Shown piece after piece: positions 5,320 to 41,233 of a stretch of 64,000 nucleotides of DNA. This DNA comes from an uncultured Thiotrichales bacterium (GTDB taxonomy: Bacteria; Pseudomonadota; Gammaproteobacteria; GCA-2400775). Location of the stretch: positions 9,523 through 73,522 of the forward strand of contig CAZTYM010000007.1 of assembly GCA_964617475.1 (NCBI GenBank), given 5' to 3'. The first letter of the stretch is position 1. Every line of letters begins with the position of its first letter. Below the pieces are notes generated by a model. The model saw only the letters and a program-made list of their open reading frames with translations. It had not been told where the DNA came from and did not search any database. A program made the translations under genes and the position numbers.

Positions 5320-6273
5320 ATGAAAATATTATTAGCTAATCCACGTGGTTTTTGTGCTGGTGTCGATCGCGCTATAGAAATCGTAGAGCGTGTGCTTGCA
5401 CTCTATGGTGCACCTATCTATGTGCGACATGAAGTGGTACATAACCGCTATGTGGTAGATGGCTTGCGTGAAAAAGGTGCTGTATTCGTCGAAGAGCTGG
5501 ATGAAGTGCCAGATGATGCCACCGTTATTTTTAGTGCACATGGTGTGGCAAACACCGTGCGAGAGGTGGCGGCAGAACGCGGTTTACGTGTGTTCGATGC
5601 CATATGCCCATTGGTTACTAAAGTGCATGTTGAAGTCGCGCGCTATGAAAAAGAAGGCCGCGAATGTATTTTAATCGGTCACGAAGGTCACCCTGAAGTG
5701 GTTGGCACGATGGGGCAATATCGCAGAAAAGATAAAGGCGGTATGTACTTGGTGGAAACGGTAGCAGATGTTCAAACTTTACAGGTCAAAGATCCAGATA
5801 ATCTCGCATTCGTTACGCAGACAACACTATCAGTTGATGATACGTCAGAGGTAATTGATGCGCTGCGCCTTCGTTTCCCGAGTATTTTAGGGCCGAAGAA
5901 AGATGATATTTGTTATGCCACGCAAAACCGCCAAGATTCGGTTAAGCAGTTGGCAGATCAATCTGATTTGGTGTTAGTGGTAGGTTCAAAAAATAGTTCT
6001 AATTCTACCCGCCTTAAAGAGATCGCGCGCTTAAACAAAGTAGAGGCCTATCTCATCGATGGCGGAGCCGATATTAATCCTCAATGGCTGGAGCATAAAA
6101 ATACCGTTGGCGTGACAGCCGGGGCCTCTGCACCTGAGGTATTGGTACAAAATGTCATTGCCAAGCTTAAAGACTATGGCGGAGAAACAGTAGAAGATAT
6201 GGATGGTCGTGTTGAGACTATTACGTTTTCCTTGCCGAAAGTATTACAAAACGTAAAAGTAGAAACGATTTAG
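5320..6273 (+). CDS. ispH: 4-hydroxy-3-methylbut-2-enyl diphosphate reductase
   Basis: 317 aa. The N-terminus [14 protein letters not shown] is typical of IspH/LytB. It starts 4 nt after lspA, so no fkpB lies between them. Confidence 0.97.
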
Positions 6274-6707
6274 GGCCAGCCGTTGATTGCTGCAGTTTGC
6301 CCGTTGGGCACATGTTGGCGACTACCGTTGGCGTTGAGTATATAAGTGACGTTATTCGCTGTTGGTGTGCCAGGGTTAGGTGTTGCAGTTAACGAAAAGT
6401 TGGTTGCTGTCTGGTTGGTAATCGCGAGGTTGTAATAAACAATTGGGCCTACCGCGGGTGATCGATTCGTGTAGATACCAGCTGGCCCAAGAGCAGCACC
6501 AACGTAAGTAGGCGTGGGTTGATCAATATAAAATTCTTGCATTCTTGCTGCAGCTTCAACCAAAGCCGTTTGTGCGTCTGCCTGCCTTGTCTGGTTGAGT
6601 TGATAAAGATAACCGGGATAGGCTATACCTGCCAAAATAGCTATGATAGCCACTACTATGACTAGCTCGATTAAAGTAAAGCCGGCTTGTACTCTACGTG
6701 TTGTCAT
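6270..6707 (-). CDS. pilE: Type IV minor pilin PilE-like
   Basis: Prepilin leader MTTRRVQAG|[10 protein letters not shown] with Gly-1, Phe+1 and Glu+5. It is the last gene of the fimU-pilVWXY1E-type operon. It has no cysteines, so no C-terminal disulfide loop. Confidence 0.8.
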
Positions 6708-9292
6708 TAAATTTCTTCTATCTCAGTCCATGAGCGTCGACCTAAACCAAAGTTAGGGCCTAGGTTACGAAATGTTTGTACGCCTTGAACGACTGAATCA
6801 CCAGAGACGAAATTGTTAACGGTATTATTTATTTCATCCTGCGTGCGTTCAATAAAGTCAATGGTATCCTGACGATTATTGAGTAAATCATCAATCTGTT
6901 CCTGTGTGGCTTGCAATTGATTGAGTGCATCGTTTAATGCGACGCTTAAGTCAGCATTATCCGTGGTGAGATCATTTAGTTCATCAATTAAGCCCTGATC
7001 AGATAGCGGATTGATTTCACCAAATTGCGCAACGAATTCATTAATAAATTCCTGAAATTCGCTTTCCAGTTCGTCGAAATCAGTAAATGCGCCAAAGCAA
7101 ACATCGGCGAATAGCTGAGGACAGTTACCAAGATCAGGAACCGCTAAGCCGTTAATTAAGGCAATATCTTCATTGCTAGAAATAACAGCGATAGTAGCGC
7201 GCGAGCGAATACCGGGGCCAAGCTCAATACCCATGACGATATCTTCTTGGGAGCCTGATTCATTAACATTGTCCGAGCTGTTTAATGAGTTATCACCGTT
7301 AATATCAAAAATAGGCATAAATGGTGCGCCGCCATTTGAAAAAGAGGGTTGCAAGAACCAGTTTCTCTCTGGGTCGTTTTGTGATTCGGCTGGCACGAAA
7401 GATGAAATTTGTGTTCTGCCCGCACGAACTTGCGGTTCGGTCAAGAAACGTTCGCTTAGTGGAATATCATCAAAGATTCTCCAGGCTCGATCAGGATCGC
7501 TACCGAAATTATTCAGCGCATTGGCAGTGGAGGTTCTTACCCGTTGATTATTTATGGTAGAAAAGCTCCGTTCGCTAATTTGCTGTTCCAGAGTACTAGG
7601 CGGTACTGACGGAATTTGCGGGTTATCAAAGTTAACAGTATCAATAACACCGTATATGTTTTGGCGTTCACCGGCGTGTGGCAAGCTATCGTTCTCACCA
7701 TTGGGGATGAGGTCTTGATCAGTGAACGCGCGACCGGTGCCTACATATATGTAGAAGCTATTGGCAACAGCTGGGTTTTCGGCGACATCGGGTGGCGCGA
7801 CAATAGGAAGTTCTTCACCCAGTGCGAGAATCAATTCGGGTTGTATAGGCGTGATTGACTCAATCGCCCCACTGCAGATATTGCTAAGGTTAAAACGCCA
7901 GAGATTGCCGTTTAGATCACCCGCGTAGGCGGTATCCGCAGTGCCGTCGCCATTTGCGTCAATAACGGCGGGAGCAGATAAGCCATTGGGTGAGTTTTCA
8001 TCTCCGCTACCTGTTTCGATAGAAAAAGCGCGGCCATTTGCCATGTTCATTACAATAAGCTTGGCTTCATTGTTGGCGCTTAGATAGCCATTACCGGCAA
8101 TTGCACGCCAGCAACCACCGGGGAATTGAGCTATTGTGGGTCTGCTATAAGTGAAGCCTATGTCGTTACTAATGTCGCCTAAACCACGATTATTATTAGA
8201 TTCCGCATCGATTTCCCAGCGTAAAACCCTGTTATTTCCTTCCGTGGCAAGCTGCTGCTCGTTTCTACCGGCTGGGTTGGTAAGATCGAGGATGTAAAAG
8301 CCTTTACCGCCAGCACCTAGTCCACCTACGGCCATTGTGCGCCATTGACCAGCTACAAAAGCGTCTTCTACTGCAATCTGGCCATCAACAAAATAAGTAT
8401 GCTCGTATGGCGTGACAGCCAATCGGTTTAATTGGCTTAATAAAATTGATGGAATATAGGCAAATTCTTCATCACCCGTTTCGGCATCAAAAATATGCAG
8501 CATGCCATCGTTAGCACCGACGACGACAATTTCCGGGCGATTTTGAAATGCATTGGCAAAGTCCTGGTAGCTTTGAGTATTGATATCAGCGTTGGGTGGA
8601 CCAATAAACTGTGGTTGAGAATGAATAATATCGCCTAGAATACTCAACCTACGGCGAAAAGGGTTAGCAGGCGTATCGGGTGTGCGCTCGTTACTACGAT
8701 CACCGCGCACAAAGTCTAATAAATCGCTGGTCCCAGAAAAGAAGTTGGCAGGATCCATCAATGCTCTTTGTAGGAAAGTTAGAGAATCATTTCCTCGCCA
8801 ACGAAAGCGAGCAATACCACGAAACGCAATATTGCCATTGAAAGTTAGTATTTTTCTTCCGGTAATAATTCGTCTTTCATCATTCCAGTATTGATCTTCT
8901 GGGCCGACGATATCATCGTCACGCGTTGCTTCTTCAAATTGAATTCTGGCGGACCAATTTTCTTCGCCTGTGTTGGAGTCAGGAGAAGAAGTCGGTGGTG
9001 AGGTGGTCAAGTCAATTGTCGAGCTAACGACTCCGTTAGTATCGATATCTAACTCAATTAAGTCTCCCTGCCATGCGCCATTTTCAAACCAGGGCCGGTA
9101 AGCTTTGACATCGCCATCACTTAAATCACTATTTGATAACTCAATAGGTGCAATCGTAACTTGTGGTTCGTTAATTGAAGCAGTCCCTAAAGGAGCAAAT
9201 CGATCAGCTGCATGGCTTGTACCTACAGCAAGCGCTAAGGGTATTAATGCAGCTAATACAAAAGGTTTTGTTAACTTAACCATTACCACCAC
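6707..9292 (-). CDS. pilY1: Type IV pilus tip-associated adhesin / biogenesis factor PilY1 (PilC family)
   Basis: 861 aa with a signal peptide (ALAVGTSHA). It has the PilY1/PilC propeller signature IDANGDGTADTAYAGDLNGNLWRF and a second Ca-site-like FDINGDNSLNSSDN. It lies between pilX and pilE, and its stop shares one base with the pilE ATG (TAATG). Confidence 0.85.
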   Translation of the reverse strand: MVVMVKLTKPFVLAALIPLALAVGTSHAADRFAPLGTASINEPQVTIAPIELSNSDLSDGDVKAYRPWFENGAWQGDLIELDIDTNGVVSSTIDLTTSPPTSSPDSNTGEENWSARIQFEEATRDDDIVGPEDQYWNDERRIITGRKILTFNGNIAFRGIARFRWRGNDSLTFLQRALMDPANFFSGTSDLLDFVRGDRSNERTPDTPANPFRRRLSILGDIIHSQPQFIGPPNADINTQSYQDFANAFQNRPEIVVVGANDGMLHIFDAETGDEEFAYIPSILLSQLNRLAVTPYEHTYFVDGQIAVEDAFVAGQWRTMAVGGLGAGGKGFYILDLTNPAGRNEQQLATEGNNRVLRWEIDAESNNNRGLGDISNDIGFTYSRPTIAQFPGGCWRAIAGNGYLSANNEAKLIVMNMANGRAFSIETGSGDENSPNGLSAPAVIDANGDGTADTAYAGDLNGNLWRFNLSNICSGAIESITPIQPELILALGEELPIVAPPDVAENPAVANSFYIYVGTGRAFTDQDLIPNGENDSLPHAGERQNIYGVIDTVNFDNPQIPSVPPSTLEQQISERSFSTINNQRVRTSTANALNNFGSDPDRAWRIFDDIPLSERFLTEPQVRAGRTQISSFVPAESQNDPERNWFLQPSFSNGGAPFMPIFDINGDNSLNSSDNVNESGSQEDIVMGIELGPGIRSRATIAVISSNEDIALINGLAVPDLGNCPQLFADVCFGAFTDFDELESEFQEFINEFVAQFGEINPLSDQGLIDELNDLTTDNADLSVALNDALNQLQATQEQIDDLLNNRQDTIDFIERTQDEINNTVNNFVSGDSVVQGVQTFRNLGPNFGLGRRSWTEIEEI

Positions 9293-9800
9293 CTGCTGCG
9301 ACAGGGTCTTCGTCTATAGTATAAATCGATTGCAAAATGCGTCTGGCACCGCTGTTATTGCTGGCGTTGATTGTCGTGTTACGAAATAGGTAAATTTCGC
9401 CGCCCGCGTCAGGAACGTCGTTACCAATAACAACAGATTCGCCCGGCAAGGTTTGAGGGCCAATGTATTCAATATAGGTTCGGGCAAAAAACCCATTTGC
9501 ATCAAAATTTGTATCGACGGTAGCTTGCTGGCGAAGAAGTTCAACAGGATTGATATTTTCGTCGAAATCGTTAAAAGCAACAGGCGTGGTGGCAATATCA
9601 TCTAATGCTACTTCAGTTGCTTTTAATTGGTTTTCTGCGGCAGAAAGTGCCTGGTTTTGTAACTGTAAATTGCTCGCCATGAGTGTTTCCAAGCCACTTT
9701 GTGACATGCCGGCAACACCGATGATTGTCATGACTAGCAGGATTATCAAGCTAATAATTAGCGCTGCACCACGTTGTTTATGCTGTTGAGAATGATGCAT
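9276..9800 (-). CDS. pilX: Type IV minor pilin PilX
   Basis: 174 aa. The leader MHHSQQHKQRG|AALIISLIILLVMT has no Glu+5, as in Pseudomonas PilX. It lies between pilW and pilY1. Confidence 0.75.
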   Translation of the reverse strand: MHHSQQHKQRGAALIISLIILLVMTIIGVAGMSQSGLETLMASNLQLQNQALSAAENQLKATEVALDDIATTPVAFNDFDENINPVELLRQQATVDTNFDANGFFARTYIEYIGPQTLPGESVVIGNDVPDAGGEIYLFRNTTINASNNSGARRILQSIYTIDEDPVAAGGGNG

Positions 9801-9802
9801 TG

Positions 9803-10819
9803 TTAAATCACCTCATTGTTGCGCAACATGACAGTATTAGTATAAAGCTGACGACGAAAACGATCGCCGTTTCCAGGCGTGCTTAGATCTAAATTAGAAT
9901 CACCCATCACATAGGTGTTATTGTTTAAGTAGCCGCCAGCCCCAGGGCACTCATCCCGAATTAATAACCAATACCGCACGGCTCTCACCTGGCTCCAATC
10001 GGTAACGTTATTAGCGTCTAAGTACTGGTCGATGACACCATCATTATTGGTGTTGACGCCGTATTGCACCTGAAGGTTTTCAACGCCGCGTATGACTTCT
10101 TCGCGTGTCGGAGTACCATTTACATCTAAAGCCAGACGATAAAGCGCAGGTACTGGAACCTGAATGCCGTCACAGTCGGCAGTTTGTGCACCAGAGTAAT
10201 ATGAGTAAGCTTCAAGCCAGCTATAGGTAATAGGCGTGTCTGTGAGATTACTAAAATTGTTGTTGTTATCTACAATCTCTTGTCGGCTAGCAACAAGCCT
10301 AATTTCGCCGTTAAATGGCGATGATTTCAGCAGTAAACCACGGTCATTCGTCATATCTGTTGCTGTGAGATTGGTTTGCCGAGAATAGCGCACAGTCAAC
10401 ACATCACCGGATAGGTAATCACCATCAGCAGCAGGTGAACCGAGTGCGTCAATGCAACCTGCATAACCAGTTAGATTATCATTAAGACCAAACACACCGC
10501 GTTCGACCATGCGGCCCCAACGATTATCGTTGAGACTTCCACATAGTCCGTCGGGATTGTCGGCAATCCCGGAAATTATGGAAGGATCTGCATTGCCACC
10601 CATGTATCCAGCTAAGCGTAGATCTTTATTAATCAAGTTTAGTGCATAGCGACCATTTTCTTGCATACGAGCGATGCTATCTTGAATGAGGTAACTTCGC
10701 TTAGCACTGATATAAACCTGAATCAGTCCTGTAATTAAGACAATACTGATAGTAATGGCAATCATTAGCTCGACAAGGCTAAAACCGCGGTGTTTGGGTG
10801 ATAGTGTCTTCATCATCAT
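9803..10819 (-). CDS. pilW: Type IV minor pilin PilW
   Basis: 338 aa. The prepilin leader is ...KHRG|FSLVELMIAI. Its size and position match PilW. Confidence 0.8.
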   Translation of the reverse strand: MMMKTLSPKHRGFSLVELMIAITISIVLITGLIQVYISAKRSYLIQDSIARMQENGRYALNLINKDLRLAGYMGGNADPSIISGIADNPDGLCGSLNDNRWGRMVERGVFGLNDNLTGYAGCIDALGSPAADGDYLSGDVLTVRYSRQTNLTATDMTNDRGLLLKSSPFNGEIRLVASRQEIVDNNNNFSNLTDTPITYSWLEAYSYYSGAQTADCDGIQVPVPALYRLALDVNGTPTREEVIRGVENLQVQYGVNTNNDGVIDQYLDANNVTDWSQVRAVRYWLLIRDECPGAGGYLNNNTYVMGDSNLDLSTPGNGDRFRRQLYTNTVMLRNNEVI

Positions 10820-10825
10820 AGCCTA

Positions 10826-11341
10826 CTAAGGAGTCACATTAAGAGTGACATTCTTCACCGGGTTCAATGCCGGGTTGGCGCCGGCAGCTTGGTTGTTGGG
10901 CTGTTGACTGGCATTCCATTGCACTATGATCTGATACTGAACAGGGTTAGCGTTAACACGTGTTACTTGCCCTGCTCCTTGTGGCAAAACCGTGTTTATC
11001 GAAGTAATCCACTGGTTAAGATCAAAACTGGCAATCTGGCCAGGAGTACATGCCGCATTAGAACAATCTTGATTAGGCGGATTGTTACCTAAGTTAATAA
11101 GGTAGTTGTTATTGCCTGCTTGAATAGCATAATCGCTATTGGCTCGAATTCTTTCAGCCAGATCTTGTGCCAGCAAAACTGCTTGACTGCGCAAGTAGGC
11201 ATTGTGTCCAGATGCTAAACCACGCGTTTGTAAGCTGGCCAGTGCAAGCAGGCCAACAGACAGAATGACTACGGCAATAAGCACTTCTAAAAGAGAGAAG
11301 CCTTTAGAGTAGCGTGAATTCTTGTTATTAAGGACAAGCAT
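10826..11341 (-). CDS. pilV: Type IV minor pilin PilV
   Basis: 171 aa. The prepilin leader is ...YSKG|FSLLEVLIAV. It lies between fimU and pilW. Confidence 0.8.
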   Translation of the reverse strand: MLVLNNKNSRYSKGFSLLEVLIAVVILSVGLLALASLQTRGLASGHNAYLRSQAVLLAQDLAERIRANSDYAIQAGNNNYLINLGNNPPNQDCSNAACTPGQIASFDLNQWITSINTVLPQGAGQVTRVNANPVQYQIIVQWNASQQPNNQAAGANPALNPVKNVTLNVTP

Positions 11342-11789
11342 CAGTAATCGCTATCCGACCGGTAGCTTCAATTTTGATCACGCGGTCATGGCTTACACTA
11401 TGCGCATCGCTTACGGTAAAGCAATCAGTATCGCTTTGTAAGTTACCACTACTATTAAACGTAATGGTCGCATCAATATTTGGTGTAATAGACAGGCCAT
11501 TTTGAATGGCTTCGGTACTGCGCAGTAGTGAGTTATCTGATGCTAGATTGACATTCCAGCCATCGCCCCAACCATTAGCAAAGCTAGATAGCGTGACGCT
11601 AGCGTTTCTTTTTATGGATTCGCTGCGCGCAAAACTAAGGTCAGAAATGAGCTGGTTCGTTTGAGCAGTAAGGCGATTATTTTGTACCATGCTATTAAAG
11701 CCAGGCACAGCAACAGTCAACAAGATAGCCGCAATAGAAAGCGTTATCATCAGCTCGATTAAAGTAAATCCGCTATTTTTTTCTCTCAT
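11328..11789 (-). CDS. fimU: Type IV minor pilin FimU (GspH/FimT family)
   Basis: The ATG at 11789 gives the short prepilin leader MREKNSG|FTLIELMITL. The track ORF extends to a TTG at 11894, which would add 35 non-leader-like residues. I prefer 11789. Confidence 0.75.
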   Translation of the reverse strand: MREKNSGFTLIELMITLSIAAILLTVAVPGFNSMVQNNRLTAQTNQLISDLSFARSESIKRNASVTLSSFANGWGDGWNVNLASDNSLLRSTEAIQNGLSITPNIDATITFNSSGNLQSDTDCFTVSDAHSVSHDRVIKIEATGRIAITDACP

Positions 11790-11923
11790 GGTGCAAGTAA
11801 AACCGATGCTTTGGAAAGTGTCAAAAATTTCGACACCAAACCCGATTAACAAAATAGAATTTCCGATAAGTGGTTGATTATATTGGTTTGTCAAAAATGT
11901 AACGCCCTAATACAGCATAGCGT

Positions 11924-18566: not shown

Positions 18567-19169
18567 ATGTCAAAGCAACTTATCACAACTGTAGATTTGA
18601 TTCGTCATGGTGAGCCTGTTGGCGGCAGTCGCTATCGCGGTCAAATCGACGATCCACTGAGTGAATTAGGTTGGGAGCAGATGCGTGAAGCGATGCCTGA
18701 GACGATACCTTGGCAGCGAATCATCAGCTCGCCTTTAACGCGTTGTTCGGCCTTTGCCCAAGAGTTGGCGGAGCAAAATAATTTACCGCTTAGCCAAGAT
18801 AGTAATTTCAAGGAAATTGGCTTTGGCGTTTGGGAGGGTATGACGCGTGATCAATTACGGGCTGATGATCCAACCATTATAGAACGCTTTTTTAAAGATC
18901 CTGTTACGAATCGACCAGAAGGCGCGGAACGCTTAGTTGACTTTAAGGCACGAGTGGAAAAGGCAATCACTGATATCACTATCAAGCATCAGGGCAAACA
19001 TGTACTGGTGGTGGCACATGCCGGAGTGATTCGTGCGGCTATGTGTTATGTGCTAGGTATGCCGATAGAAAATATGTTTCGCATTAAAGTCACTAATGCA
19101 TCGATTACGCGTTTACAGCTTGCTGATGGCGCGCCAGCAGTAATGTTATTTCACGAAGGTCAGCCTTAA
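18567..19169 (+). CDS. cobC: Histidine phosphatase family protein, alpha-ribazole-phosphatase (CobC)-like
   Basis: It has the RHGEP catalytic motif near the N-terminus (DLIRHGEPVGG) and a late H in VVAHAGVIR. It is adjacent to cobalamin salvage genes. The ATG at 18567 avoids overlap with ampE, whereas the track ORF starts at 18507. Confidence 0.7.
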   Translation: MSKQLITTVDLIRHGEPVGGSRYRGQIDDPLSELGWEQMREAMPETIPWQRIISSPLTRCSAFAQELAEQNNLPLSQDSNFKEIGFGVWEGMTRDQLRADDPTIIERFFKDPVTNRPEGAERLVDFKARVEKAITDITIKHQGKHVLVVAHAGVIRAAMCYVLGMPIENMFRIKVTNASITRLQLADGAPAVMLFHEGQP

Positions 19170-19939
19170 GTTGATTCTTGTAAAGCAGCAATCGCTTTTA
19201 ACGTCGGCACGTCGAGATTAGCCGCTTCGGCTTGTTCCAATGCACGTTTTAGCCTTGCTGGTGCGGAGCGACCCATGCATTTATGTTCCGGGTCCGCGTC
19301 CACTGCTGTGCGCATGGCATCAACTAATTTGTTTTTATCAAACTCACAGCCAGTTAGTGCAGTTTGAATGGCAAGTACATCTTCAACCACATCGAGCATA
19401 AAGCTTTCGTGTTGTGTTTGCAGTTCACCGACATTACCACCGACTTTTAAGCCGGCGACATTGGTAGTAACGATATATAAATTTTTTACCACGAGTTCGA
19501 ATAATAGCTCGGTGTCGTCAGCGAGCACCCGCACAGGAATTTCTAAAGTACCAAGCGCATCTTGAAGTTTTTGCGCGTGTCGACCATAAGCAGGTGAAGG
19601 TATCAGCACCTTGCTGTCTTGGCCTTTCTTCTTTTCAAACCAAATTGAGATAACTGTAGGATCAGTTAAATCATGGTTAGCCCAGCTAGATGGCAGTAAT
19701 TCATTTTGTAATAACACCACTCGGTCACGCCATTGATTGGGTAATGATTCAAGGCTTGCTTGTAGAGCGCCTTCACCGACAGCTACTACTACTAGCTCTG
19801 GCTCAGGGTTTGCTCTGGCAACCGCTTCAATATCGCTATTTCGCACTATAGGAATGACAGGCTTTCCTAGGCGCAAAAAGCCGCGCGCTATTACGCTGCC
19901 GATTTCTCCAATACCAATAACAATAATTGCAGATTTCAT
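19166..19939 (-). CDS. NAD(P)-binding oxidoreductase with ketopantoate-reductase-like architecture; function unknown
   Basis: It has the Rossmann motif AIIVIGIGEIGSVIARG at the N-terminus and a helical C-terminal half. The ATG at 19939 lies 2 nt after the pduO-type gene stop (19944), so it is the last gene of the riboswitch-controlled operon. The track ORF extends to 20011. Confidence 0.65.
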   Translation of the reverse strand: MKSAIIVIGIGEIGSVIARGFLRLGKPVIPIVRNSDIEAVARANPEPELVVVAVGEGALQASLESLPNQWRDRVVLLQNELLPSSWANHDLTDPTVISIWFEKKKGQDSKVLIPSPAYGRHAQKLQDALGTLEIPVRVLADDTELLFELVVKNLYIVTTNVAGLKVGGNVGELQTQHESFMLDVVEDVLAIQTALTGCEFDKNKLVDAMRTAVDADPEHKCMGRSAPARLKRALEQAEAANLDVPTLKAIAALQEST

Positions 19940-19943
19940 GATA

Positions 19944-20489
19944 CTAAGTATCTCGTTGCCAATAGACTTCTTTCCCACCATTACTACGTGCGATAACGCG
20001 AGCCATGACAAACAATAAATCAGATAAACGGTTTAAATAACGTAATGCCTGAGGATTAACAGGCTCAAGCCGGTTAAGGGAGACCAATAAGCGCTCTGCT
20101 CGGCGACTGATAGCTCTTGCCACGTGACAATGTGCCGCAGCTTGACTGCCGCCGGGTAAAATAAACTCTTTTAGCGGGGGCAAATCTTCGTTGAGGGTAT
20201 CGATATAGGTTTCAAGTTGCGCAACATGTGATTCGGTAATCATCACATGTCCAGGAATACAAAGTTCGCCACCAAGGTCGAATAAACGATGCTGAATCGT
20301 GCTGAGATAAGTACCAACCTGGTCAGGAATATCATCACTAATTACTAAACCGATAAACGAATTAGTTTCATCCACGCTGCCATAACACTCAACACGAATA
20401 TGGTCTTTATCAATACGGCTACCGTCACCAAGACCTGTGCTACCGTCATCGCCAGTACAGGTGTAGATCTTGGTTAAGCGGTTACCCAT
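19944..20489 (-). CDS. pduO: ATP:cob(I)alamin adenosyltransferase, PduO type
   Basis: 181 aa. The N-terminus KIYTCTGDDGSTGL matches the PduO/MMAB signature T-x-T-G-D-x-G-x-T. It is downstream of btuB. Confidence 0.9.
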   Translation of the reverse strand: MGNRLTKIYTCTGDDGSTGLGDGSRIDKDHIRVECYGSVDETNSFIGLVISDDIPDQVGTYLSTIQHRLFDLGGELCIPGHVMITESHVAQLETYIDTLNEDLPPLKEFILPGGSQAAAHCHVARAISRRAERLLVSLNRLEPVNPQALRYLNRLSDLLFVMARVIARSNGGKEVYWQRDT

Positions 20490-20506: not shown

Positions 20507-22321
20507 TTAGTTATCCCCAGTATAGCGGAACTCGATGAAATAGCTTCGATCAGGTGTGTTGAAGTTAGCAGCAGTTTCATATTGATTGTCAAATAAGTTC
20601 TCAACTTTAAGTGCCAGGCTATGTTGGGGCGTCACTTGGTAATTGACACCAGTATTTACTAATAAATAGCCGCCATTAACTTCCGTACTAAACTCGGAAT
20701 CATTGCGTCTGCTTGTTAACAGCATATCCGCACTATAGCTTAGTTTACCTGATCGATAAGCAATATTTGAGGTAAGGCTACGTTTGGCGCGACGAGCTAA
20801 TGTACGCCCGGTTTGATCGTTTACCGGGTTTTGGAATATCACTGAGGCGCTATATGTTAGATTGTCGGCATAGCCTTGGTAGCCAATTTCTAGACCTTCA
20901 ATGGTGGCTTCGTCGATGTTGACGTTTTCTCCAGGCTCAGGCCCCAGAAAACCATCAGGATCATTAAAGCTGATTAAATCATCGATTTTATTTCTAAATG
21001 CAGCAACTTCAAGTACACCGTTTGGCGAAAATTGATGCTGTAGGTTGAGTTCAATGTTTTGAGACACTTCTGGATCCAGGTTGACGTTGCCGCCAAATCC
21101 GAAGCGATCAGTTGCGTCAGGTGCGCGAAACGCTCTACCTGCGCTGGCGCCGATACGGGTGCTGTTACTAAGTTTATAAGCATATTCAACACTCCATGTG
21201 AACTCGCTGCCAAAATCACTATGATCAGTGAGTCTTCCGCCTACATTAAGCTGATGGTCACCGAGCGTGATTTGATCTTGAACGAAAAGGCCGTTGGTAT
21301 CCGTGTCTTCATCGAATGTGGTGCCAAATGATGCCGATTCGTTGTCCTCACGAGTTAGCAGAACGCCAACGCTAAGCAAGTTGTTGTGTAATTCGATATC
21401 GTTTTGCACATCCAAAATCCAGTTTTTGGTTCTGACAAAATCTGCGCTTTGGTTTTGTGATATGTCGTCGGTAACAAAGCTGAGTTTGGCTGTGGTGTCG
21501 ACGGTAGGTGAGAAATCAAAAAGTGCTTTTAATGTGGAAGTGCTGTTTGTTTGATCCTGGTCAAGTGGCGAAAGAAAAAAGTCTAAATACTCCGTATTGC
21601 TGTCCGCTTGCCAATGGCTGAGTTCAATATCGACAATACCGAACTCTTTACCGACATAGGCGTTAAAAGACTGGTTGATATAACCGCGGTCGATATTCGA
21701 TTCAGTGCGTGATGGGAAACCACGGGTGCTGATACCAGATAAATCGATGCCGCCATAAATGTTGTTGCTACGGTGGTGAATGCTGGCACTGCCGCGTTTG
21801 GTATCAAAGCTGCCTGCTGAGAGGTAAGCAGAGCTGCTTGTGCCTGCGGATTTACCGCGTTTAGTGATAATGTTTATCACGCCGCCAATAGCATTATTGC
21901 CGTACAAGACAGAACGAGGGCCTTTTACTATTTCGATCTGCTCGATTAGGTTCGGGTCGATATTCCATATAGCCGCGCCACCAATAGTGCCAGGGTTGAT
22001 GCGAACGCCATCAACAAGCACTAAAGTGTGGTTACTTTCCGCCCCGCGTATAAATGCTGAGGTTACTTGGCCTGGACCACCATTGCGGCCAATATCAATG
22101 CCAGCATTAAAGCGTAATAAGTCAGCAATGTCGATTGCTTGGCTGCGCTCGATTTCCTCTTTATCAATCACAATAACGGGAGCTAAGGTGTCGCCGACGG
22201 CTTGTGGAGTACGTGTTGCGCTAACAACGACTTTGTCTAATTCATCGCGGCCTTGTTCTGCGTAGATTTGGGCTGAAGCACTTAGACAGGCAGTAAGTAT
22301 AGTTATAAAACGGATATTCAT
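20507..22321 (-). CDS. btuB: TonB-dependent vitamin B12 outer-membrane receptor BtuB
   Basis: 604 aa with a signal peptide, a TonB box DKVVVSATR, a plug domain (IEIVKGPRSVLYG) and a beta-barrel. A cobalamin riboswitch lies directly upstream. Confidence 0.9.
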   Translation of the reverse strand: MNIRFITILTACLSASAQIYAEQGRDELDKVVVSATRTPQAVGDTLAPVIVIDKEEIERSQAIDIADLLRFNAGIDIGRNGGPGQVTSAFIRGAESNHTLVLVDGVRINPGTIGGAAIWNIDPNLIEQIEIVKGPRSVLYGNNAIGGVINIITKRGKSAGTSSSAYLSAGSFDTKRGSASIHHRSNNIYGGIDLSGISTRGFPSRTESNIDRGYINQSFNAYVGKEFGIVDIELSHWQADSNTEYLDFFLSPLDQDQTNSTSTLKALFDFSPTVDTTAKLSFVTDDISQNQSADFVRTKNWILDVQNDIELHNNLLSVGVLLTREDNESASFGTTFDEDTDTNGLFVQDQITLGDHQLNVGGRLTDHSDFGSEFTWSVEYAYKLSNSTRIGASAGRAFRAPDATDRFGFGGNVNLDPEVSQNIELNLQHQFSPNGVLEVAAFRNKIDDLISFNDPDGFLGPEPGENVNIDEATIEGLEIGYQGYADNLTYSASVIFQNPVNDQTGRTLARRAKRSLTSNIAYRSGKLSYSADMLLTSRRNDSEFSTEVNGGYLLVNTGVNYQVTPQHSLALKVENLFDNQYETAANFNTPDRSYFIEFRYTGDN

Positions 22322-22399: not shown

Positions 22400-22625
22400 T
22401 CTGGTTGCCCTCCGCAACGTTATTGACAAAAGCGTTAGGCCGGTCTCCGGACTCGCGAGGCTATATTCATGCGCCTTCCCATGTGTGGACACAGTGGCGT
22501 GCTGCAGGAATAACTCGCTTACCGTTGCGGGGGCAGTGTCGGGTTTGCTAATAATTAAGATTACTAATTATAGTTATGCGCACCGACTTCCCGTTTAACT
22601 TTGGTTTTAGCCAAAGCACCTAAGG
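22400..22625 (-). promoter_or_regulatory. Cobalamin (B12) riboswitch in the btuB leader
   Basis: The minus strand shows GGTGCTTTGG...AAACGGGAAGTCGGTGCG...CCGACACTGCCCCCGCAACGGTAA...GCCACTG...GGGAAGGC. It also shows the B12 box AGTCCGGAGACCGGCC, which is the complement of 22438-22453. All are conserved core elements of the cobalamin riboswitch. Confidence 0.9.
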
Positions 22626-22638
22626 CAGTGAGGTGACC

Positions 22639-22677: not shown

Positions 22678-23319
22678 TTAAGATGAGGTTGTCGGTGGTA
22701 GTGTGATTTCTTCCAGCAGTGCTAAGTCGGTAGGTCTGTCGATATCATTGAGTGATTTTTGAGTTTGCCAAGACCAGCCTAAGTCATTGAGTCGACGGGA
22801 TGTTTCAGTAAATACCGTATCATCACCCCAGGCAATATTTGTAAAAAGCTGGGCGTCAACTTTATTTGCACCGAGCATAACGTAGCCACCATCTTTGGCT
22901 GGTATGATAACGCACTCACCGCCATTATTTAGTTGATCAATGCAATCGGTAATGTTTTGCTCTGTCAAAAATGGACAGTCGGTGCCGACTATAATGGCTT
23001 GCTTGCTGTGGCCTAATACTTGTTCAATAGCGTGAAACATGCGGTCGCCCAAGTTGTCGCCTTGTTGTTCAAGCAATACGACAGGGAAGCGTTGTTCGCA
23101 GTGAGCAAAGAAAGCATGTCGCTTGCTCGGTGCACACCATAGCTCTGCTTTAATGTGATCGAATTTGTTTACTACCTTACTAATCCATTCAAGTGTGTAG
23201 AGAACTAAGCGTTCATGTAACTCGGCGGCTTGCACTTGGCTCAGTTCGGTTGTTAAACGTGTTTTTACTTTGCCAGGCTCAGGGGCTTTGGCAAAAATAA
23301 TGATAGTGGCCTGGTTCAA
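22678..23319 (-). CDS. DUF2064 / TIGR04282-type nucleotidyl- or glycosyltransferase-like protein (arsenosugar-cluster associated)
   Basis: 213 aa. The N-terminus IIIFAKAPEPGKVKTRL is characteristic of the DUF2064 family. It has a TTG start 4 nt after the upstream GT2 gene. Confidence 0.65.
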   Translation of the reverse strand: MNQATIIIFAKAPEPGKVKTRLTTELSQVQAAELHERLVLYTLEWISKVVNKFDHIKAELWCAPSKRHAFFAHCEQRFPVVLLEQQGDNLGDRMFHAIEQVLGHSKQAIIVGTDCPFLTEQNITDCIDQLNNGGECVIIPAKDGGYVMLGANKVDAQLFTNIAWGDDTVFTETSRRLNDLGWSWQTQKSLNDIDRPTDLALLEEITLPPTTSS

Positions 23320-23323
23320 GAGC

Positions 23324-24001
23324 TTAGGTGTCGTATTGTTGTTTTAATTGATCTGGGTCAACACCTAAAAAATAGGCTAACCGCAACTTCCACATCAGTG
23401 TGATAGTGCGCCAAAAACCTTGATTTTCCCAACGTCGACTTGAGGTAATCACGCGCTGCTTAAGACAGACAGGTGAGCTAAAGTGTTTTAAGCGCTTACT
23501 CAGTGCAACATCTTCCATTAATTGAATATCTGGGAATTGTCCTGCCTGCTGGAAGATTTCTCGTAAGACGAACATGGCTTGATCACCGGTGGCAATGCCG
23601 GTCAATCTTGAGCGTTGATTCATCATAAATTCGATAATGCGCAGCCACATATGCTGACCGCTAAGGCGCACATCAAACCGTCCCCATTTCTTCTGGCTGT
23701 TATCTAGCGCCGTAGTAGTGATATTCGCAGCATCATCGGGTAGTAGCGTGTCAGCATGGAGAAATAACAAAACATCTGCGCTGCTGAGTGATGCGCCATG
23801 GTTCATTTGCTGGGCTCGACCGCGCTCTGATGAGACGACTTGATCGGCTAAAAGTTTGGCGAGCTCAACGCTATTATCGTCACTGCCACCGTCAACAACG
23901 ATAACTTGATGGCCTTGTTGCCTCAGGGTTTGTAATGGTGTGAGCGTCGCCGTTATGCGTTCAGCTTCGTTAAGACAAGGAACGATAACGGCGATTTGCA
24001 C
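23324..24001 (-). CDS. Family 2 glycosyltransferase, TIGR04283-type (arsenosugar-cluster associated)
   Basis: 225 aa. It has the GT-A N-terminus IAVIVPCLNEAE and VVDGGSDDNS (DxD-like). It has a GTG start and is paired with a DUF2064 gene, as these two families usually are. Confidence 0.7.
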   Translation of the reverse strand: MQIAVIVPCLNEAERITATLTPLQTLRQQGHQVIVVDGGSDDNSVELAKLLADQVVSSERGRAQQMNHGASLSSADVLLFLHADTLLPDDAANITTTALDNSQKKWGRFDVRLSGQHMWLRIIEFMMNQRSRLTGIATGDQAMFVLREIFQQAGQFPDIQLMEDVALSKRLKHFSSPVCLKQRVITSSRRWENQGFWRTITLMWKLRLAYFLGVDPDQLKQQYDT

Positions 24002-24030
24002 GATTGGGTAAGTGGATTAATTTTGGATGT

Positions 24031-25086
24031 TTAACAACAGCTGGTTTTGTCGTTAGCGGCTGGGACACAACAGGCTGGGCCATCGGTGTCAGTATCGACA
24101 AACTCGTCGCCAAAGGCGCCGCTATTTAAGCCAGTAAAAGTTTCAGCGCTGATTTTGGTTTTCTCGCCGCGGATAAAGATATTGCCGTGATCATCACAAA
24201 CTTCTGCAAACGGGCCTTTGTAGATCACTTCACGACCCGCGTTGCTATCTATACTCAGGGGTTTACTTGCGGTTAGCGTGACAGATCGGAATTCAATGTT
24301 TTCGACCACTTTCCATGGAGCTACATCCCACTTGTCATAGCGCGCGCCAACGAAGCCAACATCGGTAAATACGTCGGCAAATTCTTGTTCTTGAAAAGCG
24401 CCCGAAATACAGCCGCTCCAGAGTTCTGGATCCGCCTTCAAATGTTCAGGCACAAACTGATCGCTAACGATGTCTGAAATAGCGACGCGGCCGCCTGGCT
24501 TAAGCACGCGGAATATTTCTCTAATGAGCTGATTTTTTTCGGCATCACTGACGAGATTTAGTACGCAGTTCGAAATAACAAGATCAACGCTATTATCAGC
24601 AATTAAAGGTGCGTTTTTACGTTGTTTGGTTTGCCAAGCAGTCATGGCTTGGTAAGCACCAAGGTTATTTGCTGGATTTTCGCTGAGATATTTATCTAAG
24701 GCTTCAAGATCTAGCGCGAGATCTTGGATATGACCTTTAACAAACTGTACACGGTCACCACCGATCTTTTCTGCCATTTCGGCTTGGTATTTGCGTGCTA
24801 GACCAAGCATATCGTCATTCATATCAATGCCAATGACTTTGCCGTTTTCGCCAGCTAAGTGGGCCGCCATATAGCATATTTTCCCGCCGCCGCTACCAAG
24901 ATCAACCACCGTATCGCCTTCGCGGACATAACGAGAAGGGTCGCCACAGCCATAGTCTTTTTCGACAATTTCTTGTGGCAGCATTTTTAGCAGACTAGTG
25001 TCGTAATCAACAGGACAGCAAAGATCGGCTTGCACTTCTTTAGCGCCATCAGAATAGGTAGAAAGAACGGCGGATTGCATATTCAT
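24031..25086 (-). CDS. arsM: SAM-dependent arsenite methyltransferase ArsM-like
   Basis: It has SAM motif I VVDLGSGGGK. All four ArsM-type cysteine positions are visible: DLCCP, YGCGDP, SNCVLNL and SGCISGA. It has a Cys-rich tail CCVPAANDKTSCC. Confidence 0.8.
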   Translation of the reverse strand: MNMQSAVLSTYSDGAKEVQADLCCPVDYDTSLLKMLPQEIVEKDYGCGDPSRYVREGDTVVDLGSGGGKICYMAAHLAGENGKVIGIDMNDDMLGLARKYQAEMAEKIGGDRVQFVKGHIQDLALDLEALDKYLSENPANNLGAYQAMTAWQTKQRKNAPLIADNSVDLVISNCVLNLVSDAEKNQLIREIFRVLKPGGRVAISDIVSDQFVPEHLKADPELWSGCISGAFQEQEFADVFTDVGFVGARYDKWDVAPWKVVENIEFRSVTLTASKPLSIDSNAGREVIYKGPFAEVCDDHGNIFIRGEKTKISAETFTGLNSGAFGDEFVDTDTDGPACCVPAANDKTSCC

Positions 25087-25110
25087 GAAAAATACTCCAA
25101 AAAATAAATT

Positions 25111-26076
25111 TTAAGCGGCATCTAAGGCGCCACCACAACTACTGCCTTGGCCAGCGGTGCAACCATAGCAGTGGTTTTTTACAACAATTTTATAACCTTC
25201 TATTGAGGTATCCATTAAATCGGTAATATGAGTGCGTTGTTGCTCGTTTGAAAGAGGTAGATCGAGCATTTGGTTAAAATCGCAATCATAAACATAGCCT
25301 TGCCAATCGACGCTGATCAGGCTGCGGCACATCACGGAACTCAAGTTGCCGGCCTGATGGGCTGAGCGCAGTAAGTCCATGTAGTCGTCAAAGGTGCCCT
25401 TAGAGATCAGCATGCTACCAAAACGTTTGATAGGCATATTGGCAATAGTAAACAGGCGGTTAAAGTACACGCCGAATTCATTTTCCAGATGCTCGTGGTA
25501 GGCTGCTTCCAATTCTTGCTGCGGTGGTGGCAGCGTTGGGCCTTGTGGGTTGTAGACCAGGTCTAGGTTTAGGTCAGAATTTTCTTGGCCATAGCCTAGT
25601 GCGTTGAGCATTTCCAAGCCTTTAATACTGGCACCGAAAACACCTTTACCGCGTTGGGCATCAACGTTATCGCCGATATAACAAGGCAGTGAGGCGACTA
25701 TGTCGACCTGATTTTCGGCTAAAAATTCAGCCGTACCTTCATAGCCTGGTTCAGATAAAATAGTGAGGTTACAGCGATCCATCACTTTTAAGCCCATATC
25801 ACGTGCTGTGCTAACAAGGTAACGGAAGTTTTCATTCATTTCCGGAGCACCGCCGGTCAGGTCGATGGTTTTTGCGCCGCAGACGGCTAAGTAGTCGATA
25901 ATTTGATCGACAGTCTCGCGGGTCATGTTCTCAGTGCGTGTGGGACCAGCGTTTACATGGCAATGTAAGCAACTTTGATTGCATAAATAGCCTAAATTGA
26001 TCTGTACTGTTTCTAGGTTGGCGCGTCGTAGCGCCGGGAAGGTAGTCTTTTCTAAGCGTGGTAAAGTCGGATGCAT
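25111..26076 (-). CDS. arsS: Radical SAM / Cys-rich protein ArsS-like (arsenosugar biosynthesis type)
   Basis: It has the radical SAM motif CNQSCLHC (CxxxCxxC). The C-terminal Cys-rich motif HCYGCTAGQGSSCGG is typical of the ArsS family. It is directly upstream of arsM. Confidence 0.8.
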   Translation of the reverse strand: MHPTLPRLEKTTFPALRRANLETVQINLGYLCNQSCLHCHVNAGPTRTENMTRETVDQIIDYLAVCGAKTIDLTGGAPEMNENFRYLVSTARDMGLKVMDRCNLTILSEPGYEGTAEFLAENQVDIVASLPCYIGDNVDAQRGKGVFGASIKGLEMLNALGYGQENSDLNLDLVYNPQGPTLPPPQQELEAAYHEHLENEFGVYFNRLFTIANMPIKRFGSMLISKGTFDDYMDLLRSAHQAGNLSSVMCRSLISVDWQGYVYDCDFNQMLDLPLSNEQQRTHITDLMDTSIEGYKIVVKNHCYGCTAGQGSSCGGALDAA

Positions 26077-26416
26077 CGTGTTCTCATTGTGTCGATATGC
26101 GTGACCCTAAAGCATAGCCGACGCATTTATCAAGAAGTATCACATGGTCGTAACAGCTTGTTTAACCTTACAATCCTACATCGAATGGGCTTTGCTGACC
26201 AGTAAGTTACCGCTTAATACTACGACAAAGTTGCTCGGTGGCGGTTGCTTGGCTATCATAGCCCGTTTTTTGGGTCGAACCGGGTCGAGAGGCTAGTTCT
26301 CCCACCCGAATTTACTGTGTGGCGGTGTCGCGCAGGTTCAGCATATCTAAAATAGTTCAAAATCGGCTTAAACCTATTATTAGAACGTTGCACCCGATTT
26401 TTCAGGAGGCTTGTGC

Positions 26417-29255: not shown

Positions 29256-29519
29256 TTATTTGCCAGATTTGTTTTCTGTTTCTTTTAGCGCAGCTTCGAT
29301 TCTGTTTTTCGCTTCATCTGATAAGCCTTCGCCAGAACCATCTTTGCGTTTGATGAGAGTTTGGGTGGCCTGATTAAGCAAATTTAATTGCTTTGCATAT
29401 TGCTGGCAGCCCTTGCATATCATGATGTGCAATTTTATTCCTATACGATCGCGAAGACTGAGTTTTTCGTCTTGTGATTGCGCTACGAGTTCGGCCACTC
29501 TTTTACATGAAGGCAACAT
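29256..29519 (-). CDS. Small zinc-finger (zf-HC2) anti-sigma factor, no transmembrane segment
   Basis: 87 aa. It has the H-x3-C-x2-C motif (HIMICKGC). Its start is 5 nt downstream of the ECF sigma gene stop. Confidence 0.7.
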   Translation of the reverse strand: MLPSCKRVAELVAQSQDEKLSLRDRIGIKLHIMICKGCQQYAKQLNLLNQATQTLIKRKDGSGEGLSDEAKNRIEAALKETENKSGK

Positions 29520-40210: not shown

Positions 40211-40265
40211 TTTGGCATAGCTGCCGACATATTTATTTAAGGAATTGATATGGGGTAGAACGCAT

Positions 40266-40685
40266 ATGGCTGATGGCAATCAGCTACTAGAAGGCATCAC
40301 GATAGTATTGGCAGATGATAGCCAAACCATACGCCATACCGTTGAGGCGGTATTGGGCGCGGCTGGCTGTCGCGTTGTATCTGCAGAGGATGGTTTCGAT
40401 GTTCTTGCAATGGTAGTTGATGAGATGCCGCACCTGGTGCTGCTCGATATCAATATGCCCAGATTGGACGGCTATCAGGCTTGCGCGCTCATAAAACAAA
40501 GTGATCGCTGTGGTCATATTCCTGTGGTGTTATTGTCCGCCCAAAATAGCGTATTTGATCGAGCGCGTGGCAAGGTGGTGCGTGCTGACAATTATCTCGT
40601 TAAGCCGTTTAGCCGAGACGAATTGATTGAAGTGGTTCGATGTCTTACTAAAAAAAGCCAGTCAGGCGTAGATGGGGTGATGTAG
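40266..40685 (+). CDS. pilG: Twitching-motility response regulator PilG (CheY-like)
   Basis: It closely parallels P. aeruginosa PilG (DDSQTIRHT...EDGFDVLA...MPRLDGYQACALIK...YLVKPFSRDEL). It is divergent from gshB. The track ORF begins at a TTG at 40245. Confidence 0.85.
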   Translation: MADGNQLLEGITIVLADDSQTIRHTVEAVLGAAGCRVVSAEDGFDVLAMVVDEMPHLVLLDINMPRLDGYQACALIKQSDRCGHIPVVLLSAQNSVFDRARGKVVRADNYLVKPFSRDELIEVVRCLTKKSQSGVDGVM

Positions 40686-41197
40686 TGGAGGAGAGACGTC
40701 AACATCAGGATCGCCGCAGAAGTGATCGCTACGGAAGCTTTGACAGCGAGCTATATGTTGCTTTCCGTTGTGCTGAATACCATTTTGTTTTTGAAAAGCA
40801 AGAAGTGATGGCAATAACGCCATTACCTAATATTATTTCATTGCCCTTGAGCCATCACTGGTTTGTTGGTGTTACTAGTATCAGTGGCTATATAGCCTGC
40901 GTTACTGATCTGAGCGCATATCTAAACCTGGAGCCGGCAATCACCAAGGAAGGTGCCAAATTGATTTTGACTGCGCATGGCGATAATGTCTTTGGTCTAG
41001 TTGTGGATTCAATTGTTGGGGTGATTGAATGTCAGTCTTGTGAACGTTCTCGCGCAATTTACCCAATTGAAATAGAAACTTTTACTTCTCGTCAGCGTTG
41101 TAATGGTGATCAGTGTTATGACGAGTTCGATATTAGGCGTTTGTATCTAGATCCTAAGTTCCAGAATGCGGTGACACTAACGTCGCATAGTTCCTAA
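40685..41197 (+). CDS. pilI: CheW-like coupling protein (PilI position) with Arg-rich N-terminal extension
   Basis: 170 aa with a GTG start sharing one base with the pilG stop. It has a CheW-like core (YVAFRCAEYHFVFEKQEVMAITPLP...FVGVTSISGYIACVTDLSAYL...FGLVVDSIVGV). Confidence 0.6.
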   Translation: MEERRQHQDRRRSDRYGSFDSELYVAFRCAEYHFVFEKQEVMAITPLPNIISLPLSHHWFVGVTSISGYIACVTDLSAYLNLEPAITKEGAKLILTAHGDNVFGLVVDSIVGVIECQSCERSRAIYPIEIETFTSRQRCNGDQCYDEFDIRRLYLDPKFQNAVTLTSHSS

Positions 41198-41233
41198 CAT
41201 TATTTATGCAAATAATCATATTTCACTAAGTTC

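Follow-up and report, generated by a model that had tools for sequence, protein, structure and literature searches.

A compact operon of four genes, lying on the minus strand of a 64,000-nucleotide stretch of DNA from an uncultured Thiotrichales bacterium (contig CAZTYM010000007.1, positions 9,523 to 73,522; the whole stretch is called the window below), probably directs the synthesis of a ribose-linked, arsenosugar-type organoarsenical from arsenite, to judge from the protein families to which its products belong. The operon occupies window positions 26076-22678 and begins with arsS, the gene for an enzyme of the radical S-adenosylmethionine (SAM) type, followed by genes for an ArsM-like methyltransferase, a family 2 glycosyltransferase (GT2) and a DUF2064 protein. 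As such it is an ordinary representative of a known, half-characterised pathway, whose gene neighbourhood is recognised by curated models in hundreds of species. The four genes are the following:

26076..25111, minus strand: arsS, 321 amino acids (aa), radical SAM 5'-deoxyadenosyl-transferring enzyme of the DDMAA synthase family (DDMAA: 5'-deoxy-5'-dimethylarsinoyl-adenosine)
25086..24031, minus strand: ArsM-like SAM-dependent metalloid methyltransferase, 351 aa, from an uncurated clade with BgArsM-like architecture
24001..23324, minus strand: GT2 of the TIGR04283 family, 225 aa, GTG start; small, soluble, inverting, GT-A fold
23319..22678, minus strand: DUF2064/TIGR04282 protein, 213 aa, TTG start; predicted CofC/FbiD/MobA-like nucleotidyltransferase

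The four open reading frames (ORFs) are co-directional and separated by 24, 29 and 4 nt, and gaps of this size (4-29 nt) indicate a single transcription unit. In the ORF listing, no ORF of 80 aa or more competes with them on the opposite strand across the operon, and on other contigs of this organism, genes called independently had the identical four products. The arrangement is not random: the identical gene order was found again at the loci L040, L048, L084, L087, L089, L090 and L091, and it occurs in at least six further lineages.

The four proteins of the operon

ArsS aligns with positions 2-303 of the 303 positions of the NCBIfam equivalog model TIGR04167 and reaches 462 bits, where the cut-off is 300, and Pfam recognises in it a Radical_SAM domain together with DUF3641 (191 bits). 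The CxxxCxxC motif of radical SAM enzymes (C32, C36 and C39) is contained in CNQSCLHC at residues 32-39, whereas CYGCTAGQGSSCGG, at residues 303-316, belongs to the Cys-rich C-terminal DUF3641 domain (C303, C306 and C314). The protein therefore combines the two marks of ArsS, CxxxCxxC and a DUF3641 tail with a C-terminal GSSC/U motif. An alignment of 14 sequences revealed ten invariant Cys residues (C32, C36, C39, C102, C132, C250, C265, C303, C306 and C314), the last of which is the selenocysteine (Sec) site ('GxxU') in the selenoprotein members of TIGR04167. The ArsS of the cyanobacterium Pseudanabaena galeata, whose gene (L093) adjoins an arsenosugar ArsM named as such by the Prokaryotic Genome Annotation Pipeline (PGAP), is 44% identical to the window protein over 317 residues, with all Cys motifs retained. 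A search of the PDB returned no ArsS structure, only generic radical SAM matches (E ~1e-4). The reaction of the family, according to the published accounts of it, is established as the radical adenosylation of trivalent dimethylarsenic, DMAs(III), to DDMAA, a redox-neutral step with an As(V) product. By membership in this enzymatically characterised family, the window ArsS would be a DMAs(III)-adenosylating enzyme.

By profile score and identity, the methyltransferase is a member of a large ArsM-like clade without a curated name, closest to the ArsM of arsinothricin biosynthesis. The best-scoring NCBIfam model is that of arsinothricin ArsM (NF040538), which aligns over its full length with 378 bits, below the cut-off of 500; the scores for general ArsM (NF008823, 194 bits, cut-off 263) and arsenosugar ArsM (NF038099, 119.5 bits, cut-off 400) are also below threshold. 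The identity of the protein is 41.6% to an arsinothricin ArsM, so named by PGAP, from a P. amygdali plasmid, ~33% to canonical ArsMs, 28.3% to a cyanobacterial arsenosugar ArsM, and 52-55% to members of its own clade in Cupriavidus and on Staphylococcus plasmids. This clade is very abundant in metagenomes, where its NCBI name is merely 'methyltransferase domain-containing protein'. Pfam finds the class I SAM methyltransferase domains Methyltransf_31, _25 and _11, and the SAM-binding motif DLGSGGG is invariant among 21 clade members, as are C23, C24, C47, C71, C174, C226 and the terminal pair C350/C351. In a HMMER match to CmArsM (E = 5e-35), C47, C174 and C226 align with C72, C174 and C224; the C23/C24 pair lies outside this alignment, at the place where one would look for the first catalytic Cys (CmArsM C44). 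All four Cys positions that characterise ArsM/AS3MT enzymes (C44, C72, C174 and C224 in CmArsM) are thus occupied. The intervals between them, 23-24/127/52, match those calculated from the published positions of BgArsM (Cys30/54/181/233), whereas CmArsM differs (28/102/50). By homology, the window enzyme would bind As(III) through the conserved Cys tetrad and methylate it to DMAs(III).

Further evidence that the clade is concerned with arsenic came from the Staphylococcus aureus plasmid pSA159 (L092, NZ_CP090408.1, positions 5687-8056). A 52%-identical methyltransferase, unnamed by NCBI, is encoded there in a module with an ArsR/SmtB regulator and a permease, beside arsRBC, flanked by recombinases and transposases and with no radical SAM gene. 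This module ties the methyltransferase clade to arsenic independently of ArsS. In the reverse look-up, four of five arbitrarily chosen window-type methyltransferases were encoded in the order ArsS, methyltransferase, GT2 (and DUF2064 in part of the cases): one in Thiohalobacter sp. IOR34, one on a marine contig, one on a contig adjacent to RuBisCO genes, where the operon also includes VTT and PHO4/PiT genes, and one on a further contig. The fifth stands without ArsS, beside a fatty-acid hydroxylase and a NUDIX gene. As an observation in its own right, the pSA159 module resembles a mobile arsenic methylation and efflux unit in a Gram-positive pathogen.

The GT2 protein scores 282 bits against TIGR04283 (cut-off 182) and matches Pfam Glycos_transf_2, with D37, D42, H82 and D84 invariant. 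A profile search of the PDB retrieved GT2 enzymes of the DPMS, ArnC and GpgS types (E = 1e-7 to 1e-10). Because its closest relatives are polyprenyl-phosphate and phosphoglycerate glycosyltransferases, the acceptor could be either a small glycerol-type molecule or a lipid. The DUF2064 protein scores 193 bits against TIGR04282 (cut-off 134) and also matches the CofC model TIGR03552 (E = 9e-10); in Pfam it hits DUF2064 and, just over the gathering score of 22, CofC (23.2 bits). The first match of its profile in the PDB was 3cgx, a DUF2064 structure (E = 8e-41), followed by CofC (2i5e), FbiD (6bwg) and a 3-phosphoglycerate guanylyltransferase (7p97) at E = 1e-3 to 4e-2. In that search, the only characterised relatives of DUF2064 are guanylyltransferases that activate phospho-compounds, and the nucleotidyltransferase motifs KTRL and GxDxP align between the window protein and the CofC/FbiD enzymes. 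The DUF2064 protein is therefore predicted to be a nucleotidyltransferase of the CofC/FbiD type rather than the glycosyltransferase that its family name announces, and these profile matches make a nucleoside diphosphate (NDP) sugar a reasonable product.

Most of what the original prediction had read from the letters agrees with these results. The tight four-gene cluster at 22678-26076 reappears in the ORF listing; both ArsS motifs and the four catalytic Cys positions of the methyltransferase are where they had been claimed to be; and the accessions TIGR04167, TIGR04283 and TIGR04282 that it named are correct, with all three cut-offs passed. Two findings that, by its own account, would have told against it were looked for and did not appear: the radical SAM protein groups with the ArsS family and not with a different subfamily, and the methyltransferase retains its As(III)-binding Cys tetrad. 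Two assignments had to be narrowed. The methyltransferase is ArsM-like and carries the Cys tetrad, but it is not an arsenosugar-type ArsM, and of the two proposed glycosyltransferases, whose families were correctly given, the DUF2064 protein looks like a nucleotidyltransferase.

A possible route from arsenite to an arsenoriboside

The families represented in the operon suggest a sequence of five steps. First, the methyltransferase would bind As(III) via its Cys tetrad and methylate it with SAM to DMAs(III). ArsS would then cleave a second SAM molecule at its [4Fe-4S] cluster and adenosylate DMAs(III) to DDMAA. A 5'-substituted-adenosine phosphorylase of the methylthioadenosine phosphorylase (MTAP) type, encoded elsewhere in the genome, could free adenine from DDMAA and leave an alpha-ribose-1-phosphate derivative, which the CofC/FbiD-like DUF2064 nucleotidyltransferase might turn into an NDP-sugar. 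Finally, GT2 would move the sugar onto a glycerol-type or lipid acceptor. GT2 enzymes, as classified in CAZy, invert the anomeric configuration, so that an alpha-NDP-sugar would give a beta-riboside, as in natural arsenosugars. The adjacency of MTAP at some related loci, the CofC-like DUF2064 protein and the inverting GT2 together amount to a stereochemically coherent hypothesis of the pathway.

A more far-reaching version of this proposal can be put forward only tentatively. In a non-photosynthetic marine gammaproteobacterium, the operon by itself may lead all the way from arsenite to an arsenoriboside that is glycosylated and possibly lipid-linked; DUF2064 and GT2 would carry out the steps after DDMAA via NDP-5-deoxy-5-dimethylarsinoyl-ribose, and the BgArsM-like clade would serve as a dedicated supplier of DMAs(III). 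If this were true, bacteria outside the algae and cyanobacteria would be a widespread and overlooked source of environmental arsenosugars.

Distribution and gene neighbourhood of ArsS loci

At E <1e-20, ArsS has more than 8000 protein matches, many of them already labelled ArsS. When one genome per species was scanned, relatives came to light in at least 598 species. The neighbourhood counts given below refer to the best 80 ArsS loci (60-68% identity) of these at least 598 species, with neighbours identified by tblastn of representative proteins. Among the best 80 are the cultured heterotrophs Pseudomonas peli, Neptunomonas marina, Zhongshania guokunii, Roseateles and Limnobacter, as well as methanotrophs and sulfur oxidisers. 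Given this spread, the presence of ArsS outside the cyanobacteria is routine. These 'arsenosugar' genes already appear in genome papers on the heterotrophs Aromatoleum and Modicisalibacter, and three of the four genes carry PGAP names beginning 'arsenosugar biosynthesis' in many genomes. The survey of the four-gene cassette for which the original prediction had called confirmed that it recurs in further lineages; the exact order is a minority form of a far more widespread ArsS locus. The neighbours found near ArsS were:

GT2: 47 of 80 loci
DUF2064: 43 of 80 loci
Fusion of VTT/TVP38 with a MerA-like disulfide reductase: 37 of 80 loci
334-aa protein that could not be assigned: 17 of 80 loci
DUF3047: 16 of 80 loci
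DUF547: 11 of 80 loci
SSF-like transporter: 10 of 80 loci
Extracytoplasmic function (ECF) sigma factor: 8 of 80 loci
MTAP, directly adjoining ArsS: 5 of 80 loci, all in Burkholderiales
Fatty-acid hydroxylase: 4 of 80 loci

The common core of ArsS loci is thus ArsS, GT2 and DUF2064. Thioredoxin/CcdA and fatty-acid hydroxylase/sterol desaturase genes are among the recurrent accessory genes. An ArsM-like gene lies within 10 kb of ArsS at ~14 of the 80 loci, and these genes come from four clades:

Window-type methyltransferase clade: L013, L023, L040, L048, L050, L055 and L065
AS3MT-like type of 346 aa: L056, L058, L060, L063 and L078
True arsenosugar ArsM (AsSugarArsM): L003 (549 bits, cut-off 400)
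Canonical ArsM: L032 (365 bits, cut-off 263)

That four ArsM clades have been recruited to ArsS loci independently speaks for the handling of methylated arsenic at these loci.

ArsS loci are also found on plasmids. ArsS occurs in 54 plasmid records and DUF2064 in 54, mostly the same records according to the tally of organisms, which comprise Burkholderia (49), Cupriavidus, Thiodictyon and Acinetobacter. On the Burkholderia, Thiodictyon and Acinetobacter plasmids the PGAP names are the same as those of the ArsS, GT2 and DUF2064 trio of the window, and on a B. thailandensis plasmid (L095) MTAP adjoins the TIGR04283 gene.

Some accessory genes deserve separate mention. The fusion protein of ~720 aa, found in 37 of the 80 species (for example L010, 11119-13287), joins a VTT/TVP38 (DedA-like) part to an FAD-dependent part resembling MerA and glutathione reductase; at the cyanobacterial ArsM-ArsS locus L093, the VTT/TVP38 and MerA-like parts are separate genes. 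A PHO4/PiT gene of the phosphate/arsenate type stands immediately upstream of ArsS in L087 (4857-6005), and a PstS/PhnD-like ABC system lies in or beside a related cassette in L085 (10917-14250). These transport genes hint at a dedicated uptake of arsenate or of an organoarsenical.

Evidence against the arsenosugar assignment and alternative explanations

Several findings weigh against an arsenosugar pathway in the window. The methyltransferase reaches none of the curated NCBIfam ArsM cut-offs (NF040538, NF008823 and NF038099). About 66 of the 80 ArsS loci lack, in the 10 kb around ArsS, any ArsM-like gene as a source of DMAs(III), so that the trio of ArsS, GT2 and DUF2064 might have another substrate. 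Conversely, the P. galeata locus, the one cyanobacterial ArsM-ArsS locus inspected, which has TVP38 and MerA-like genes, differs from the window operon in having neither GT2 nor DUF2064 within 7 kb of its ArsM-ArsS pair, which suggests that these two proteins may be unneeded for classical arsenosugars. Among the ORF translations of at least 110 aa that were read, none in the window is an MTAP or a nucleosidase, and the adjacency of MTAP to ArsS, being limited to Burkholderiales, may go back to one ancestral arrangement. Finally, no experimental paper on TIGR04282 or TIGR04283 was found in the literature; their 'arsenosugar' names appear to have been given through guilt by association, from gene neighbourhood.

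An alternative that we consider unlikely is that ArsS, GT2 and DUF2064 of proteobacteria are not primarily an arsenic pathway but lead to a different membrane or redox metabolite, derived from an adenosyl or ribosyl group, with the ArsM-like gene as an occasional add-on. Apart from the many loci without ArsM and the association-based family names, it accords with the arsenic-neutral character of the commonest accessory genes, which are the VTT/TVP38 and MerA-like fusion, DUF3047, DUF547, fatty-acid hydroxylase/sterol desaturase and thioredoxin/CcdA. Yet VTT and MerA-like genes also flank the cyanobacterial ArsM-ArsS pair and hence belong to an arsenic context too, the chemistry of the ArsS family is arsenic-specific as characterised, and ArsM could be encoded elsewhere in the genome or DMAs be taken up from the environment. 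The recruitment of four independent ArsM clades beside ArsS is likewise at odds with it.

Rather improbable, too, is a reversed order of reactions resembling that of arsinothricin biosynthesis, in which ArsS adenosylates As(III) or trivalent monomethylarsenic, MAs(III), and the BgArsM-like enzyme methylates the resulting adenosyl-arsenical. The resemblance of the methyltransferase to arsinothricin ArsM (best model and full-length alignment, Cys spacing identical to that of BgArsM, and 41.6% identity vs 28% to arsenosugar ArsM) would fit this order, as would the position of the radical SAM gene first and the methyltransferase gene second; BgArsM works, according to the literature, after a radical SAM enzyme and on an R-As(III) intermediate. 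Against this, characterised ArsS takes DMAs(III) and leaves an As(V) product, which would have to be reduced before an ArsM-type methylation, and the window encodes no reductase for such an adenosyl-arsenical. The Staphylococcus plasmid member of the clade, in its module of ArsR, permease and methyltransferase, has no radical SAM partner, which suggests ordinary methylation of As(III)/MAs(III). On account of the As(V) product and of this module, the reversed order is disfavoured and methylation before adenosylation is preferred.

It is very unlikely that the pathway acts physiologically on a different metalloid or chalcogen (Se, Sb or Te) in place of arsenic. ArsM-type enzymes methylate other metalloids too, TIGR04167 includes some selenoproteins, in which Sec takes the place of C314, several NCBIfam ArsM-like models also describe selenoproteins, and no arsenic-sensing or resistance gene was seen in the window. 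But a substrate containing selenium does not follow from a catalytic Sec, all characterised relatives (ArsS, CmArsM and BgArsM) act on arsenic, and links to ArsR, arsRBC and transporters of the phosphate/arsenate type are seen in related cassettes.

Genomic setting and regulation

The operon is chromosomal and inherited vertically in this lineage. In the relatives L090 and L091, whose ArsS is 75-78% identical, the entire surrounding arrangement is kept: pilT, an ECF sigma factor, its anti-sigma factor and pntBA (opposite strand) lead up to ArsS, the methyltransferase, GT2 and DUF2064, which are followed by a riboswitch, a btuB-like receptor gene, PduO, cobC, cbiB, ampD and typA. Synteny at this degree of divergence indicates that the cassette is an old chromosomal feature of the lineage. 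The G+C content of the operon (0.465) is that of its flanks, and this flat composition, together with the synteny in relatives with ArsS only 75-78% identical, ruled out a recent genomic island.

The remainder of the window is housekeeping in nature (ileS, type IV pili, pyrBC, metK/ahcY/metF, glycolysis and the Chp chemosensory system). All translations of at least 110 aa were read, with only the ambiguous ORFs scanned with NCBIfam, and no arsR, arsB, acr3 or arsC was found among them. The window therefore has no ars resistance operon, in the sense of arsR accompanied by arsB or acr3 and by arsC, into which the four genes could be wired, as had been claimed from the start. The same reading of the translations found no diagnostic autotrophy genes in the window. 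The 'heterotroph-like' context of the original prediction cannot be established from the window, and the cassette is common to autotrophs, methanotrophs and heterotrophs alike. Two clusters of the window are ordinary for Gammaproteobacteria: a complete minor-pilin/PilY1 type IV pilus cluster (6270-11894, minus strand) and a chemosensory cluster of the PilG/PilI/PilJ/ChpA type (40245-47947, plus strand).

Features upstream of the operon that may bear on its expression are the following:

26077..26410, minus strand: 5' intergenic region of arsS, divergent from pntA, with two blocks conserved in L090 and L091
30100..29525, minus strand: ECF sigma factor (Pfam Sigma70_r2/r4_2); pntAB lies between the sigma/anti-sigma pair and the operon
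29519..29256, minus strand: zf-HC2 anti-sigma factor (Pfam zf-HC2)

Alignment of the intergenic region with L090 and L091 delimited a first block at 26263..26243 (minus strand), GCTAT(G/A)ATAGCCAAGCA, which contains a -10-like TATAAT/TATGAT, and a second at 26173..26148 (minus strand), an inverted repeat (T)CGTAA-N14-TTACGA that looks like a candidate operator. A cis-regulatory RNA upstream of arsS was considered and rejected: the Rfam search of the region gave no match beyond chance, and the structure that RNAalifold predicted from three relatives was weak, its covariation term being positive. The conserved blocks look instead like DNA-level promoter or operator elements. A homologous sigma/anti-sigma pair stands directly upstream of ArsS in L004 (53% and 41% identity), others lie beside ArsS in L018, L060, L070, L078, L085 and on the B. 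thailandensis plasmid (L095), and in L090 and L091 the position of the pair is kept. The occurrence of such pairs beside ArsS in unrelated genomes suggests a dedicated regulator of ArsS loci, and the pair of the window is a possible, tentative candidate for regulating the operon.

Downstream, a cobalamin riboswitch (RF00174, 117 bits; 22421-22638, minus strand) starts 39 nt past the stop codon of DUF2064 and precedes genes for a BtuB-like TonB receptor (22321..20507), a PduO-type adenosyltransferase, cobC and cbiB. No terminator-like site was seen between the stop codon and the riboswitch, where scans for terminators and promoters did no better than on shuffled controls, and the adjacency is kept in L090 and L091; on these two grounds, transcription of the arsenic operon may continue into the B12-uptake unit. 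A fortuitous neighbourhood of the four genes, or a lack of co-expression, with GT2 and DUF2064 forming part of the B12-uptake unit, could appeal to the same missing terminator and conserved adjacency but is hardly credible in view of the 4-29 nt gaps and of the order ArsS, (methyltransferase), GT2, DUF2064 in unrelated genomes with neither btuB nor a riboswitch alongside (Rfam found no riboswitch in L084, L087 and L089). Between the PduO adenosyltransferase gene and cobC, an ORF of 257-281 aa (19166-20011, minus strand) is conserved in L081 and L091, its sole match being a weak N-terminal Rossmann similarity to ketopantoate reductase.

Significance

No experimental demonstration of the steps that follow DDMAA in arsenosugar or arsenolipid biosynthesis was found in the literature; the most recent texts go no further than to say of adenine that it 'can then be removed, allowing further derivatization'. 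A minimal four-gene operon free of accessory genes is a convenient construct for studying the roles of TIGR04282 and TIGR04283 in these steps, and it equally suits the question of whether non-photosynthetic bacteria make arsenosugars. This value is not specific to the window, as hundreds of genomes carry equivalent and already labelled cassettes. What is useful beyond it is the large unnamed ArsM-like clade, the four ArsM clades recruited by ArsS loci and a coherent, testable pathway.

Comparison with known systems

Arsenosugar genes of the cyanobacterial arsM-arsS type are known, in the outline given by the reports on them, from Synechocystis sp. PCC 6803 (Xue et al., 2019; Cheng et al., 2021). 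As in that system, an ArsM-like methyltransferase gene of the window adjoins a gene for a TIGR04167 radical SAM enzyme, which shares its Cys motifs with the 44%-identical Pseudanabaena protein, and DDMAA would be expected after two steps. Unlike it, the window methyltransferase comes from another clade (28% identity to the cyanobacterial enzyme; 119.5 bits against the NF038099 cut-off of 400), and the host is a non-cyanobacterial gammaproteobacterium.

With the arsinothricin genes arsL-arsM of Burkholderia gladioli and Pseudomonas, the operon shares the pairing of a C-As-forming radical SAM enzyme and an ArsM built in the same way, identical in Cys spacing and aligned over the full length of NF040538. 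The radical SAM partners differ, however: ArsL transfers ACP (3-amino-3-carboxypropyl) and ends in an RCCLKC tail, whereas ArsS would transfer 5'-deoxyadenosyl and has a DUF3641 tail. Contrary to the arsinothricin biosynthetic gene cluster arsQML, the operon encodes neither an ArsL-type enzyme with the RCCLKC tail nor the ArsQ permease, and its methyltransferase stays at 378 bits against 500 and at 41.6% identity.

The DUF2064 protein shares the aligned KTRL and GxDxP motifs with the CofC/FbiD guanylyltransferases of F420 biosynthesis (2i5e, 6bwg and 7p97), but this similarity is distant (profile E = 1e-3 to 4e-2) and its family is DUF2064, represented by the structure 3cgx. The last system to be compared is the neighbourhood defined by TIGR04167, TIGR04283 and TIGR04282. 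Unlike the usual loci of this kind, the window operon has an ArsM-like gene between ArsS and GT2, a minority arrangement, and is free of the VTT-MerA-like fusion, DUF547, DUF3047 and MTAP; like them, it passes all three models, and, as at most of the surveyed proteobacterial loci, ArsS comes first, then GT2 and then DUF2064.

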